NCBI RefSeq assembly: GCF_003334785.1
Contig: NZ_QOWV01000013.1
Direction: 5' to 3' (one strand)
DNA: 64,000 nt
Source of the DNA: Escherichia coli
Lineage (GTDB): Bacteria > Pseudomonadota > Gammaproteobacteria > Enterobacterales > Enterobacteriaceae
How positions within the stretch are numbered: the stretch's first letter is position 1; each line of letters starts with the position of its first letter. A program made the position numbers and the translations under genes. Below the pieces are notes generated by a model that was not told the DNA's origin, searched no databases, and saw only the letters and a list, made by a program, of their open reading frames with translations. Below are positions 91 to 63,431 of the stretch, piece by piece.

Positions 91-948
91 TCAGCCTAAA
101 ACTGCCAGTTTTTCGAGCGTTTCGAAGCCGTAACGCTGTAAAACGGGCAATAATTGTTCAGCTCCTGGCGTCATTGCCATACAAAAGGCAATATTCGCAT
201 CGGCAGATTTTGCATCCGGGGCTTCATGTTCTAACAACCAGGCCGTTCGGCGAGCAATCGCTGCGCCAGAATCCACCAGCCGGGTTCCCTCTGGCAGCAC
301 TTGTAACAGTTCTTCTTGTAGTAGAGGGAAATGGGTGCAACCCAATACAACGGTATCTGGCGGCTCTTTCATTCTTAACCACGGGCGTAGGATACGTTTT
401 AGTGCATCCAGAGAAACATCTTCGCCATGTAGCTTCGCTTCAGCCAACTCAACCATCTCTGCCGAGCCCAGCATTTCTATCTGGCATTCATTAGCGAAAC
501 GCGCGATCAGCTCATGAGTATAAGAACGTTTAACTGTTCCGCGGGTTGCCAGTAATCCGACAATGCCATTTGCCGTCAGACGTGCAGCAGGTTTAATCGC
601 CGGCACGACACCAACAACCGGGAAGTCGAACTTTTCGCGTAATGCAGGAAGTGAAACGGTACTGGCAGTGTTGCAAGCGACCACAGCCAGCGCAAGGGGA
701 TAACGTTCTTGCACCGCGGTGACAATTGCCACCACTCGCTCAACAATAAACGCTTCGCTTTTTTCGCCATACGGGAAAGCGACGTTATCGAAAGCATAAA
801 TGTAATGGAGATCCGGTAAGAGATGCCGGATCTCGTCATAGACCGACAACCCACCGACGCCGGAGTCAAACACCAGCACGGTGGGACGTGGTTCAGAAGG
901 TGTAGCTGCCAGACAAGGTGTATTCCCGTCCTGCAGTTTGGTAGCCAT
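91..948 (-). CDS. murI: Glutamate racemase (285 aa); annotated start is an internal ATG of the 289-aa ORF 91..960
   Basis: ORF translation [33 protein letters not shown] matches MurI; 5' end overlaps the btuB 3' end. Confidence 0.93.
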
Positions 949-2737
949 AGACTGTCTCATAATCTTTGTCGAACAGGTTGGCTATTTTACCACGAACTGT
1001 CAGGTGAGAGGTGACCGGATACGCAACCGCAAGATCCCACAAGCTCACACCGCCCATTTTAACGGTTTGATAAGGATAAGATGAGTAATCCTTATCATAG
1101 CGAGTGCCTAAATACTGATAAGTAATACCCCAGTCGAAGTCATACAACTGCCAGTCGAGCTGGTATTTCACCTGCTGTTTAGCACGGCGTAACAACGGCG
1201 TGTCGGTAATCGCATTGCGCGCATCGACATAATCATAACTCACAGTATGCGTCAGTGGTCCGGTATCAAAATTGGCGGTCGCCTCGACGCCCTTAATCCG
1301 CGCTTTCCCTTCGTTGTAATATTTCAGGGTGTGATCATCATAATCGATCAAGTCACTGACATCGTTACGATATCCGGAAATACGCCAGTTCACCCCAGCG
1401 GTTAAGCCTTCAAACGCGCCTTCCCACTGTTTGCTTTTCTCCGGGTCCAGATTCGGATTTCCGTAGAAGCCATACAGTTGCCCCAGATTTGGTGCCTTAT
1501 AAGATGTCCCGTAGGAAGCAATGAAGCGATAACCTTCGATGAATTCCCAACCGGCGCTGGTTTGCCAGGTTCCATGACGACCAAACTGTGAGTTATCGTC
1601 ACTGCGTGCTGCGCCTTCAAAGGTAAAATCGCCGACTTGTTGCAGCCCGGTCAGATAGATGCCGGTATTACGTTGATCATATCCATCCTCAACATAACCT
1701 GTACCCGGCGTCGTAGTCTGTTTCTGCCAGTCGACACCCGCACCAATACTACCGTGACCAACGATGACATTGTTTGCCCACTGGACGGTGTATTGCTTCA
1801 TCTCATCGAGCGTCGCCGACGAATCATAACGACCATAATGGGGATCGTAGTTGTAATCTTTGCTATGGCTATAGCTGGTAATGAGTTGTGATTTAATCAG
1901 TTCGCCGTTATAGCGCAGCCCGGCGTCCCAACTTTGGCTATAGAGTTTACGGGTATCGAGCAACGGTGAACCGGGAGAATAATACGCGTCATAATTGGTA
2001 CGGTTATCATAGCCATAGCCGCGCACAAAGCCGCTCCAGGCATCAGTAAAGTTATGCTCCAGCGCGCCATAAAGCGTTTTACTTAAAAAACCATCGTTAT
2101 CTGTCTGCGCTTGCGTTCCGGTATTACCATAGGCAACAACATCATAACCATGAGTATGGGCATAATCGCCCAACAGCGTTACCCGTGTCTTATCCCCCAG
2201 TTGTTGCTGCGTAGAGACATCATAGTTCTGATAACTATTGCTTCCCCACCCTGCTGAAATTTCCGTTCCGGGTTCATCGCGCGTCGTGATGATATTCACC
2301 ACCCCGCCTATTGCATCGGAACCATAAACAGCGGAGCGCGGCCCACGGATATATTCAACACGCTGGACAAGCGCAATAGGGAACTGGCTAAGGTCGGCAG
2401 AACCACTCACCCCCGCCAGATTCAGGCGTACGCCATCAATTAACACCAACACATGACTGGCATTTGTACCGCGAATAAAAATAGATGAGAGCTGACCTGA
2501 ACCGCCGTTTTGGGTGATATCGACGCCCGGAAGACGGCGCAGCACATCATTGACCGAGGTCGACTGCCAGCGGTCGATATCCTGACGGGTCACAACGGTG
2601 GTTGGTGCAAGCACAGTGCTGCGCGGCTGTTCAAAACGGTTAGCAGTAACGACGAGAGTATCCGGGCTGGTATCCTGTGCCCAAGCGGAAAATGCCGTGA
2701 CGGAACACGCCGTCAGCAGCGAAGCTTTTTTAATCAT
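893..2737 (-). CDS. btuB: TonB-dependent vitamin B12 outer membrane transporter (614 aa precursor)
   Basis: ORF 893..2782 contains [23 protein letters not shown] signal peptide and C-terminal terminal-Phe beta-barrel (..LSGSYTF); start taken at the MIKK methionine. Confidence 0.95.
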
Positions 2738-2977
2738 TGTAAAGCATCCACAATAGAAGAAGGATGCCGCAGGTTTCATCAATATTACGCGATGATGAGA
2801 ACCAGATGCGACGTTGGCCGGCAGGTCTTCGGGCTTGGAGGGGTATCTAAGATACTAAGAGATGATGACTTCCCACCGAATGGCAGTGTCCGCATAACGC
2901 AATCATCGCACCTTTCCTTACCGCTGCGCGTCAGCTCCAGATTCGCACTGGATTCCCTATTAACTCACAGGACCGGC
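2738..2977 (-). promoter_or_regulatory. btuB 5' leader containing the adenosylcobalamin (B12) riboswitch
   Basis: Minus-strand sequence begins GCCGGUCCUGUGAGUUAAUAGGGAAUCCAGUGCGAAUCUGGAGCUGACGCGCAGCGGUAAGGAAAGGUGCGAUGAUUGCGUUAUGCGGACACUGCCAUUCGGUGGGAAGUCAUCAUCUCUUAG.., which I recognise as the E. coli btuB leader, about 240 nt upstream of the btuB ATG. Confidence 0.85.
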
Positions 2978-3105
2978 AAGTGGATGCTACAGGTTGTAAC
3001 AAGTTACTGTCCAGACGTAGCTCACAAATAGGAATTCATCAAGATCTGGACATCTGATGAGCAATCCCTACAATCGCCGCGTACTTTAATTTTTCAGGAT
3101 ACATC

Positions 3106-4206
3106 ATGACCCCCGAACACCTTCCAACAGAACAGTATGAAGCGCAGTTAGCCGAAAAAGTGGTACGTTTGCAAAGTATGATGGCACCGTTTTCTGACCT
3201 GGTTCCGGAAGTGTTTCGCTCGCCGGTCAGTCATTACCGGATGCGCGCGGAGTTCCGCATCTGGCACGATGGCGATGACCTGTATCACATCATTTTCGAT
3301 CAACAAACCAAAAGCCGCATCCGCGTGGATAGCTTCCCCGCCGCCAGTGAACTTATCAACCAGTTGATGACGGCGATGATTGCGGGTGTGCGTAATAATC
3401 CCGTTCTGCGCCACAAGTTGTTCCAGATTGATTACCTCACTACGCTGAGTAATCAGGCGGTGGTTTCCCTGCTATACCATAAGAAGCTGGATGATGAGTG
3501 GCGTCAGGAAGCGGAGGCCCTGCGCGATGCACTGCGCGCGCAGAATCTGAATGTGCATCTGATTGGTCGGGCAACGAAAACCAAAATCGAGCTGGATCAG
3601 GATTACATCGATGAACGTCTGCCGGTCGCAGGGAAAGAGATGATCTACCGTCAGGTAGAAAACAGCTTTACCCAGCCGAACGCGGCGATGAATATTCAGA
3701 TGCTGGAATGGGCGCTGGACGTAACCAAAGGCTCAAAAGGCGATTTACTGGAGCTGTACTGCGGCAACGGTAACTTTTCATTAGCGCTGGCGCGTAATTT
3801 TGATCGGGTATTAGCCACCGAAATCGCTAAGCCGTCGGTTGCTGCTGCGCAATACAACATCGCAGCTAACCATATTGATAACGTACAAATTATTCGTATG
3901 GCGGCAGAAGAATTTACTCAGGCGATGAATGGTGTGCGCGAGTTTAACCGCCTGCAAGGGATCGACTTAAAGAGTTATCAGTGCGAAACCATTTTTGTCG
4001 ACCCACCGCGCAGCGGTCTGGACAGTGAAACCGAGAAAATGGTGCAGGCGTATCCGCGTATTTTGTACATCTCCTGTAACCCGGAAACGTTATGCAAGAA
4101 TCTGGAAACATTAAGCCAGACGCACAAGGTCGAACGTCTGGCTCTGTTTGATCAGTTCCCCTACACGCACCATATGGAGTGCGGCGTATTACTGACCGCG
4201 AAGTAA
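3106..4206 (+). CDS. trmA: tRNA (uracil54-C5)-methyltransferase (366 aa)
   Basis: ORF translation [32 protein letters not shown]..; divergent from btuB as in K-12. Confidence 0.95.
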
Positions 4207-4215
4207 AACCCATGC

Positions 4216-4237
4216 CGGATGCGCTAGCATCCGGCAT
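4216..4237. terminator. Perfect palindrome gccggatgcgctagcatccggc between convergent trmA and yijD; likely bidirectional terminator hairpin
   Basis: 22-nt inverted repeat seen directly in the 39-bp trmA/yijD gap. Confidence 0.5.
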
Positions 4238-4245
4238 AATACCGA

Positions 4246-4605
4246 TTACTCAGCAACTTCCTGCTTACGGTTACGCATCTTCGCGCCAATCCAGAACACC
4301 ATAATGACGGAGAGTACTGCCGGGAAGAAGTTAGAGCCGATATCCGGATATTCCGCACGAACTACCGTGCTGTACAGCAGTACGCCGAGAATAAAACAGG
4401 CAGCTGCCAGACCCGGCAAGCCTACCGGCATAGTGCGATTAAGATAACGTTGATGCAGGCAGTAAACCGTCAGCACCAGGGAAATAATCGGGAATACAGA
4501 AAATGGCACAATGGAGCTAAACAGCGCTGCGAAAGTACCATTAATCGATAAGCCAGCAACTAACGCCAGCAGCAGCGTACCTCTATCTTGATTTGCTTGT
4601 TTCAT
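4246..4605 (-). CDS. yijD: Inner membrane protein YijD (119 aa, DUF1422)
   Basis: 119-aa hydrophobic ORF immediately downstream of fabR with 1-nt overlap, as in K-12. Confidence 0.85.
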
Positions 4606-5252
4606 TACTCGTCCTTCACATTTCCCGGAATAATTGCGGTTTTCTCTTGTTCACGGCGATACCAGTAATAAGCCCCTTTCGAAATCATTCGCAGTTGCAG
4701 TACCAGTCGCTCTTCTAATTGCCGACGTTGTTCGACGCCGACGTCCAACGCCTCGGCACCCGCACTGAAGACAATTGTCACCATTGCTTCGGCTTGCGCT
4801 TCAGTAAACGCACGCGGCATATGGTTTTCGAGTTCCAGATAGTCCGCAAGTTCCGCAATGAAGTGCTGAATTTCACGCGCAACGGCGGCACGAAACGCAG
4901 CGGAGGTGCCGGAGCGTTCCCGCAATAATAACCGGAAGGCGTTAGGATTATTACCGATGAACTCCATAAATGTGGAGACCGAGGTGCGGATCACACTCCC
5001 GCCTTTGGCGATACGCTGACGCGCCTGGCGCATGAGTTGGCGTAGCATTAAACCGCTCTCATCAACCATGGTCAGACCCAGTTCGTCTACGTCGCGGAAA
5101 TGCCGATAAAAAGAGGTGGGAGCAATGCCCGCTTCACGCGCCACTTCACGCAAACTCAGGCTGGCGAAGCTGCGTTCAGCACTTAATTGGCTAAATGCGG
5201 CTTCCACCAGCGAACGGCGGGTTTTTTCTTTTTGTTGCGCTCTTACGCCCAT
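4605..5252 (-). CDS. fabR: TetR-family repressor of unsaturated fatty acid biosynthesis (215 aa; longer 234/247-aa in-frame starts exist upstream)
   Basis: ORF contains [52 protein letters not shown] (TetR HTH). Confidence 0.88.
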
Positions 5253-62756: not shown

Positions 62757-63431
62757 TTATTTTCCCCACAACCGGCGGGAAAAATCTTCGATCTTGCCGC
62801 TCAGTCGGCGCTTTTGCATCGTCCGCGTCCAGCTTTTCGATAACCCGGCAGCGGAGAGTAAACGGTGATATTGATCGTCATCAAACGGCATATGCCATGC
62901 GATGGCGGCAGCCTCCTGCACGGTCACATCGCTGACACGGGAAACCAACTCCAGCGGCGCGTCCGCAGACACTTTCCCTGGCGCTATCACGCTATACAAC
63001 CACCCCACCTTACCTGTGTTTTGCATCAACTGCGCTATATCGCTGATATCAAAATGGTAATTGAGTTTATAGCAAGGCGAGCGCGGCTGGCTGACCTGAA
63101 TTAATGCCTCTCCCCAGCGGAAAATATCGCCCATATAAACATTACTTTCCGTCAGGCCGTCGGTTGAGAGGTTTTCACCAAACGCAGGCGCAACAAACAA
63201 CTCCGCCTGTTCCGGAAATTCCCGCGCCCAGTAGAGATAATGCTCACGAGGATAATGACACAGCGCTCTGTCTGGCCCGCCGTGAACCTTTTTCTCCGCC
63301 TGCTCGTCACCTTCCAGCCCCAGCTCCGTCAGCATCAACTCACCATCAACCTGGATTTTAGCAATTGCGCTGGGTTTGCCTTCGGGATAAGCCTGAATCT
63401 TGCCTGTGTATACATCAACCGGATATCGCAT
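62757..63431 (-). CDS. yiiM: MOSC-domain protein YiiM (224 aa; N-hydroxylated base analog detoxification)
   Basis: ORF contains MRYPVDVYTGKIQAYPEGKPSAIAKIQVDGELMLTELGLEGDEQAEKKVHGGPDRALCHYPREHY.. Confidence 0.9.
   Translation of the reverse strand: MRYPVDVYTGKIQAYPEGKPSAIAKIQVDGELMLTELGLEGDEQAEKKVHGGPDRALCHYPREHYLYWAREFPEQAELFVAPAFGENLSTDGLTESNVYMGDIFRWGEALIQVSQPRSPCYKLNYHFDISDIAQLMQNTGKVGWLYSVIAPGKVSADAPLELVSRVSDVTVQEAAAIAWHMPFDDDQYHRLLSAAGLSKSWTRTMQKRRLSGKIEDFSRRLWGK

Follow-up and report, generated by a model that had tools for sequence, protein, structure and literature searches.

How is an essential gene kept expressed when its start codon lies inside the end of a gene that is repressed by vitamin B12? 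In the window analyzed here, a 64,000-nucleotide stretch of Escherichia coli DNA, murI begins within the last codons of btuB, and the two genes are read in different frames of the same strand (Table 1). The answer that we favor, with moderate confidence, is that this is an ancient dual-coding overlap of the Enterobacterales, in which murI would be autonomous by virtue of signals residing in the end of btuB, likely an internal promoter together with a Shine-Dalgarno sequence. The protein products are not in question, as both frames of the overlap encode real proteins. BtuB is identified from its translation and from the RefSeq annotation of the identical MG1655 sequence, its Proteus homolog contains the Pfam domains Plug and TonB_dep_Rec, and MurI is identical at 285/285 residues to chain A of PDB entry 2JFN, the crystallized E. 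coli glutamate racemase. A script check of the coordinates gave a frame offset of 2 between the genes, the murI start codon ATG948 being assembled from adjoining Tyr and Gly codons of btuB (T-AT G-GC), while an in-frame TAG is located 12 codons upstream of ATG948. The leader of btuB matches the cobalamin riboswitch model with 87 bits (E = 2e-21; gathering score, 31.5), and a riboswitch is annotated by RefSeq as well. A preliminary description of the locus had proposed a 56-nt out-of-frame overlap, riboswitch control of btuB, and essentiality of murI. Coordinates, frames, and the RefSeq annotation of MG1655 all agree on the first of these, the RF00174 match upstream of btuB on the same strand supports the second, and the third is in accord with Goodall 2018, where the essential-gene list includes murI and does not include btuB.

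Table 1. Features of the btuB-murI locus, in coordinates of the window
Feature	Position	Strand	Description
btuB CDS	893-2737	minus	TonB-dependent vitamin B12 outer-membrane receptor, 614 aa; ATG 2737, TGA 895-893
murI CDS	91-948	minus	Glutamate racemase, 285 aa, MATKLQDG...; ATG 948-946, stop 93-91
Dual-coding overlap	893-948	minus	56 nt; last 18 sense codons and stop of btuB, residues 1-19 of MurI
Cobalamin riboswitch aptamer, btuB leader	2803-2992	minus	Rfam RF00174
In-frame upstream ATG (ATG960)	958-960	minus	MRQS-MATK extension, 289 aa; arises from btuB Tyr codon TAT instead of TAC
Constrained single-coding btuB block	949-1002	minus	Codons -35 to -19 from the btuB stop; synonymous entropy 0.19
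Extended -10-like motif TGGTAAAAT	984-992	minus	In btuB codons CGT GGT AAA ATA; candidate internal murI promoter
Predicted transcription start	977-979	minus	29-31 nt upstream of murI ATG, from standard -10 spacing, if the motif is active
Weak Shine-Dalgarno-like GAGA	955-958	minus	6 nt upstream of ATG948, in btuB codons GAG ACA

The overlap as such is already known and belongs to the standard annotation of K-12. The surrounding 3.2 kb match E. coli K-12 MG1655 at 100% identity and occur in every one of the 5426 complete E. coli genomes searched, and RefSeq annotates an overlap of 56 nt in MG1655 as well (btuB 1964-3808 and murI 3753-4610 in the numbering of the extracted locus), such that the K-12 overlap in RefSeq and EcoCyc and the one described here do not differ. 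It was reportedly described by Doublet et al. in 1992 and 1993, upon the cloning of murI (dga). The btuB-murI overlap has already been termed “well-characterized” in the literature, and a TraDIS preprint gives it as the reason why the Keio collection has no btuB knock-out (10.1101/2025.12.01.691526). Because RefSeq annotates the overlap and the literature already describes it, we make no claim of novelty for the arrangement, and since it is textbook annotation, the overlap by itself raises no new question. The additions made here are modest, namely the exactness of the overlap across the order and a synonymous-site footprint upstream of murI.

When examining the distribution of the overlap with one genome per species, close MurI relatives were found in 373 species, the best 80 of which were retrieved, all of them Enterobacteriaceae. 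Together with Proteus (Morganellaceae) and, among the sister orders, Shewanella, these constitute the sampling. A long btuB frame ending, with TGA or TAA, exactly 56 nt after the equivalent of ATG948 is present in 78 of the 80 Enterobacteriaceae species. The remaining two have a damaged btuB, in which the junction and the last ~50 codons are kept. In Intestinirhabdus alba there is one in-frame TGA ~190 codons before the end, and in Citrobacter amalonaticus AUH_CA_2023_1 there are many frameshifts, for which sequencing error is a possible cause; the murI overlap is intact in both, and both btuB genes appear to be pseudogenes. Further afield, the trmA-btuB-murI order and the 56-nt overlap with its ATG recur in Proteus (MurI 67% identical), and the overlap is also retained by three highly divergent alleles of E. 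coli btuB. Judging from these comparisons, the overlap is conserved far beyond chance. Separately, we encountered a typical Enterobacteriaceae btuB-murI junction in CACSKA010000012.1, a record titled 'Chryseobacterium sp. 18061', with a MurI 89% identical to that of E. coli. The record closely resembles Citrobacter sp. 18056 from the same study, and the assembly is probably mislabelled or contaminated.

It is conceivable that the annotated murI start is itself an artefact, the true start being located downstream of the btuB stop (for example GTG at codon 24 or 26) or at ATG960. MurI proteins outside the Enterobacterales do have only 3-10 residues ahead of the FDSGVGG core, transposon insertions in the overlap are tolerated in one orientation, which implies that the N-terminal tail is not strictly essential, and most E. 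coli genomes contain ATG960. Against this stands the codon itself. ATG948 is present in 80/80 Enterobacteriaceae and in Proteus, and the btuB Tyr codon that supplies it is TAT in every one of the 80, with a synonymous entropy of 0. Other conserved Tyr codons of btuB mix TAT and TAC, and the fixation of this one is therefore direct evidence for selection on ATG948. Moreover, btuB synonymous sites are frozen over the whole overlap, both open reading frames are called translated by ribosome-profiling tools, and the crystallized form of the enzyme has 285 residues. We consider the overlap and ATG948 to be real with near certainty and an annotation artefact to be barely credible. The MRQS extension noted in the preliminary description does exist in this strain, and the K-12 71-mer containing ATG960 is identical in 4694 of 5426 E. 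coli genomes; what fell away was its role as a start. Among 80 aligned sequences the codon is TAC in 77, with ATG seen in the window, in one other Escherichia representative, and in Proteus, and an anti-SD duplex check revealed no Shine-Dalgarno-like sequence upstream of ATG960. Neither conserved nor preceded by such a sequence, ATG960 was ruled out as the murI start: though common within E. coli, it is unlikely to be functional because of the TAC found in 77/80.

A more quantitative view of the constraint was obtained by aligning the final 250 codons of btuB from 80 sequences and computing normalized synonymous-codon entropy. The btuB background (198 codons) averages 0.79, and even the lowest of 191 background windows of 17 codons reaches 0.707, compared with 0.07 for the 18 overlap codons and 0.19 for the 17 codons upstream of them (-35 to -19). 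In the murI frame, codons 2-19 yield 0.07 and codons 36-130 yield 0.75, and the suppression in the overlap is evident from both frames (0.07 vs 0.79 for btuB and 0.07 vs 0.75 for murI). The near absence of btuB-synonymous change indicates that a second constraint is present in the overlap, which could be the MurI tail or RNA/DNA signals. The two proteins do not share the burden equally. Amino-acid entropy within the overlap averages ~0.17 bits for BtuB versus 0.33 bits for MurI residues 2-19, making BtuB the more conserved partner, and what variation there is falls mostly on third positions of btuB codons, corresponding to second positions in murI, where 12 of 18 columns vary at low frequency. 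Consequently, it is the BtuB C-terminus that sets most of the overlap sequence. This C-terminus is the last strand of the barrel and ends in Phe, a signal for outer-membrane assembly.

Does murI then depend upon the translation of btuB? The preliminary description had inferred that the two are coupled, or that btuB translation occludes murI, in which case MurI would follow B12 through the riboswitch. Every ribosome finishing btuB does cross the murI start, much like in the co-directional overlaps of coupled pairs of the trpE-trpD and trpB-trpA type (ATGA/TGATG), and the Shine-Dalgarno-like sequence of murI is weak (-2.7 kcal/mol). However, efficient termination-reinitiation is known for stop and start codons within a few nucleotides of each other, as in overlaps of only a few nt, whereas the btuB stop is located 56 nt downstream of the murI start. 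Compared with the 1-4 nt of the trp-type pairs the overlap is far longer, and disruption of btuB is tolerated. RNA structure provides little support for coupling either. In the minimum-energy fold, AGCCA (-35 to -31) forms a helix with UGGCU at the start codon, but these 5 bp are the single pairing at the start and exhibit no compensatory changes, and over 151 nt around the murI start the predicted energy is -35.6 kcal/mol versus a shuffled mean of -36.3 (z = 0.17), which is nothing unusual. As the fold is no better than shuffled sequence, an unmasking of structure is not indicated. A B12-switchable essential enzyme would also make B12 toxic, which it is not known to be.

The condition of btuB in natural and engineered strains points in the same direction. 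Sequenced E. coli isolates (ECO-104, RM10410, and EC416; from clinical, crow, and pig sources) carry IS421, IS2 (in opposite orientation), and ISApl1 insertions that interrupt btuB 552-738 nt into the gene and leave murI intact; presumably, these are phage- or colicin-resistant variants. Likewise, an engineered deletion of ~1000 bp from the 5' end of btuB, ATG included, is viable, and transposon insertions within the overlap are tolerated with a ~10-fold orientation bias (10.1101/2025.12.01.691526), a bias that fits native murI signals located just upstream of the overlap. It should be borne in mind that outward transcription from the inserted elements, whether IS or kan cassette, could drive murI in such disrupted-btuB mutants. 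The distance between stop and start, the RNA structure, the btuB disruptions, and the constrained block upstream together render an obligatory coupling of murI to btuB translation, or a control of murI by B12, unlikely, and the coupling or occlusion first proposed is, in our estimation, highly improbable. On this indirect evidence, we hold with considerable confidence that translation of btuB is dispensable for murI expression, although it may have a modest modulatory effect.

The block of constrained btuB codons immediately upstream of the overlap is proposed to hold the murI signals. Within this block is the motif TGGTAAAAT, which fits the extended -10 pattern TGnTAnnnT, having a TGn directly upstream of a TAnnnT hexamer. 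The form TGGTA[A/G]AAT is invariant in 80/80 aligned sequences, Proteus included; the A/G at the third base of the hexamer reflects a Lys-to-Arg replacement (AAA to AGA) in Cedecea and Proteus, which keeps TAnAAT. Synonymous positions just after the hexamer, at -35 and -32 relative to the murI ATG, vary freely (58/22 and 59/21), and by this comparison the motif is conserved beyond coding need. Within E. coli, the 40-mer at 962-1001 is identical in 5413 of 5426 genomes. TGNTANAAT has two matches in the 64-kb window on both strands, where shuffles predict 6.7 +/- 2.5; the second match is found at 63355-63363 on the minus strand. Nearer to the start codon, the GAGA element forms an anti-SD duplex of -2.7 kcal/mol, versus a median of -3.4 for the long open reading frames of the window, and the btuB GAG codon that supplies it is invariant in 80/80. 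A generic promoter scan did not list TGGTAAAAT, and no recognizable -35 element accompanies it. The same scan returned a promoter-like TTATCA-16-TATGAT at 1094-1121, but the free variation among species at the synonymous sites of its codons (entropies of ~0.9-1.9 bits) spoke against a conserved murI promoter, and this candidate was discarded. Whether TGGTAAAAT is an active promoter seems to us evenly balanced.

The principal competitor to an internal promoter is a single operon, with murI transcribed only from the btuB promoter and translated from its own weak ribosome binding site, the conserved block being an unstructured, A-rich standby site for ribosomes. Indeed, the block could well serve translation initiation and not transcription, and downstream genes often constrain the 3' end of the gene upstream. 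The two genes are co-directional and no terminator-like site lies between the btuB body and murI, the single terminator-like match being found at 2331-2346, early in btuB. Even so, lesions that put an end to btuB translation are expected to lower read-through from the btuB promoter by Rho-dependent polarity. Polar effects would therefore be anticipated for the IS insertions and for the I. alba nonsense codon, yet the essential murI works. It is also established knowledge that E. coli grows normally with B12, despite the repression of btuB. Furthermore, the constraint reaches ~52 nt upstream and is sharply limited to the positions of TGnTAnAAT, the sites directly following being free to vary. 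The literature is closer to the operon: btuB-murI has been treated as one (10.1101/2024.01.04.574217), co-transcription being assumed there, and no published murI transcription start or promoter was found by keyword searches or in Kim 2012, Conway 2014, a 2025 Sci Adv operon paper, Ettwiller 2016, Shimada 2014, the Adams 2020 preprint, and Goodall 2018, which together with the missing -35 match counts in favor of the operon. On balance, we consider it unlikely that the btuB promoter is the sole source of murI transcripts, though this is the most serious of the rival explanations.

Based upon these observations, several steps can be envisioned for the arrangement that we favor. Firstly, murI would be independent of both btuB translation and the B12 riboswitch, its signals being embedded in the last ~35 btuB codons and kept there by selection on btuB synonymous sites. 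Secondly, transcription would most likely start from the internal sigma-70 extended -10 promoter TGGTAAAAT, producing a leader of ~29 nt, and the weak GAGA element would serve the start of translation. Thirdly, transcripts reading through from the btuB promoter would probably supplement murI expression under low B12. We infer, and do not observe, the activity of the promoter, the position of its start site, and the relative share of the two transcripts. The preliminary description had itself named what would speak against coupling, namely an independent murI promoter and ribosome binding site that give B12-independent expression. The former are matched in part, by a conserved TGGTAAAAT as a candidate promoter and a weak Shine-Dalgarno sequence upstream of murI. 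There are parallels elsewhere, since the ftsZ promoters within ddlB, ftsQ, and ftsA and the rpoD promoters within dnaG are also promoter-like elements inside an upstream open reading frame, and the putative murI element, whose conservation is visible at synonymous sites, would likewise shield an essential downstream gene from upstream regulation. Unlike those buried promoters, the present candidate is an extended -10 lacking a -35 and is only ~29 nt from the start codon. As a side observation, TTGTCA-16-TATAAT, a promoter close to the consensus (11/12), is located just downstream of murI at 18-45 of the window on the minus strand, behind an A/T-rich stretch. From its position and sequence we take this to be rrnB P1, and in MG1655 16S rRNA is annotated ~370 nt after murI.

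How this overlap might have arisen can be considered from MurI relatives outside the Enterobacterales, which start 3-10 residues before the FDSGVGG core and are found in other gene contexts. In Shewanella decolorationis (CP031775.3), a fabR-like gene and trmA (on the opposite strand) are followed directly by murI, a neighborhood shared with E. coli except that btuB is absent, and MurI starts with MSQPILVFDSG; another MurI relative adjoins argG-argH, after them and again without btuB. At its N-terminus, E. coli MurI is longer by 19 residues, exactly the stretch encoded by the overlap. From the Shewanella trmA-murI arrangement without btuB and its short MurI, it follows that the Enterobacterales extension corresponds to the overlap, and the gene orders suggest an insertion of btuB into an older trmA/murI intergenic region. 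The simplest reading would be that btuB and its riboswitch came between trmA and murI in the ancestor of the Enterobacterales, after which the murI start moved into btuB. Alternatively, btuB may have been inserted or extended. An origin by extension of murI into btuB is thus something that we infer, and the first 19 residues of MurI would be a lineage-specific extension written in a second frame over the conserved C-terminal beta-strand of BtuB. The coincidence of the 19-residue extension with the overlap is like overprinting, in which an N-terminus is extended into the frame of a neighbor, with BtuB as the more conserved partner within the overlap.

The tail itself yields few clues. Insect endosymbionts that keep murI have divergent N-terminal tails of similar length, and a literature search for a function of the MurI N-terminal extension found nothing usable. 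An AlphaFold2 model built from a shallow alignment of 6 MurI sequences was poor (mean pLDDT 57), with residues 1-18 below 50 and devoid of secondary structure, which gives weak support to the tail being disordered and says little about its possible function. The tail may have gained a function, given that the synonymous sites in that stretch are frozen.

Another aspect of the locus is the variability of btuB, which is highly polymorphic within E. coli. By megablast, identity to K-12 btuB is only 80-90% in 375 of 5426 genomes, the examples listed covering ~30-37% of the query, and 60-80% in another 91. Some alleles are ~50-60% identical to K-12 over the last 600 nt of btuB until ~100 nt before the murI ATG, at which point identity jumps to 97-100% and stays there through murI. 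Such a pattern resembles a replacement of alleles driven by phages or colicins, its sharp boundary falling close to the putative murI signals. A copy of the btuB 3' end and the murI 5' region was also seen in two E. coli plasmid records. Taken one step further, the last ~100 nt of btuB might act as a unit of murI, with TGGTAAAAT and the Shine-Dalgarno sequence insulating the racemase from B12 across the Enterobacterales, the same segment forming the recombination boundary of btuB alleles, and the 19-residue tail possibly being functional. We offer this extended interpretation tentatively and judge it to be somewhat short of probable.

Whatever the mechanism, the overlap has practical and evolutionary consequences. 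A clean deletion of btuB is impossible without damage to murI, and in transposon screens for phage and colicin receptors the overlap leads to spurious hits in murI. The evolution of btuB under pressure from phages is constrained by it as well. An internal promoter, if real, would account for how MurI, an essential peptidoglycan enzyme, can be encoded behind a B12-repressed gene without becoming sensitive to B12, and it would provide a clear case of regulatory signals maintained at synonymous sites.
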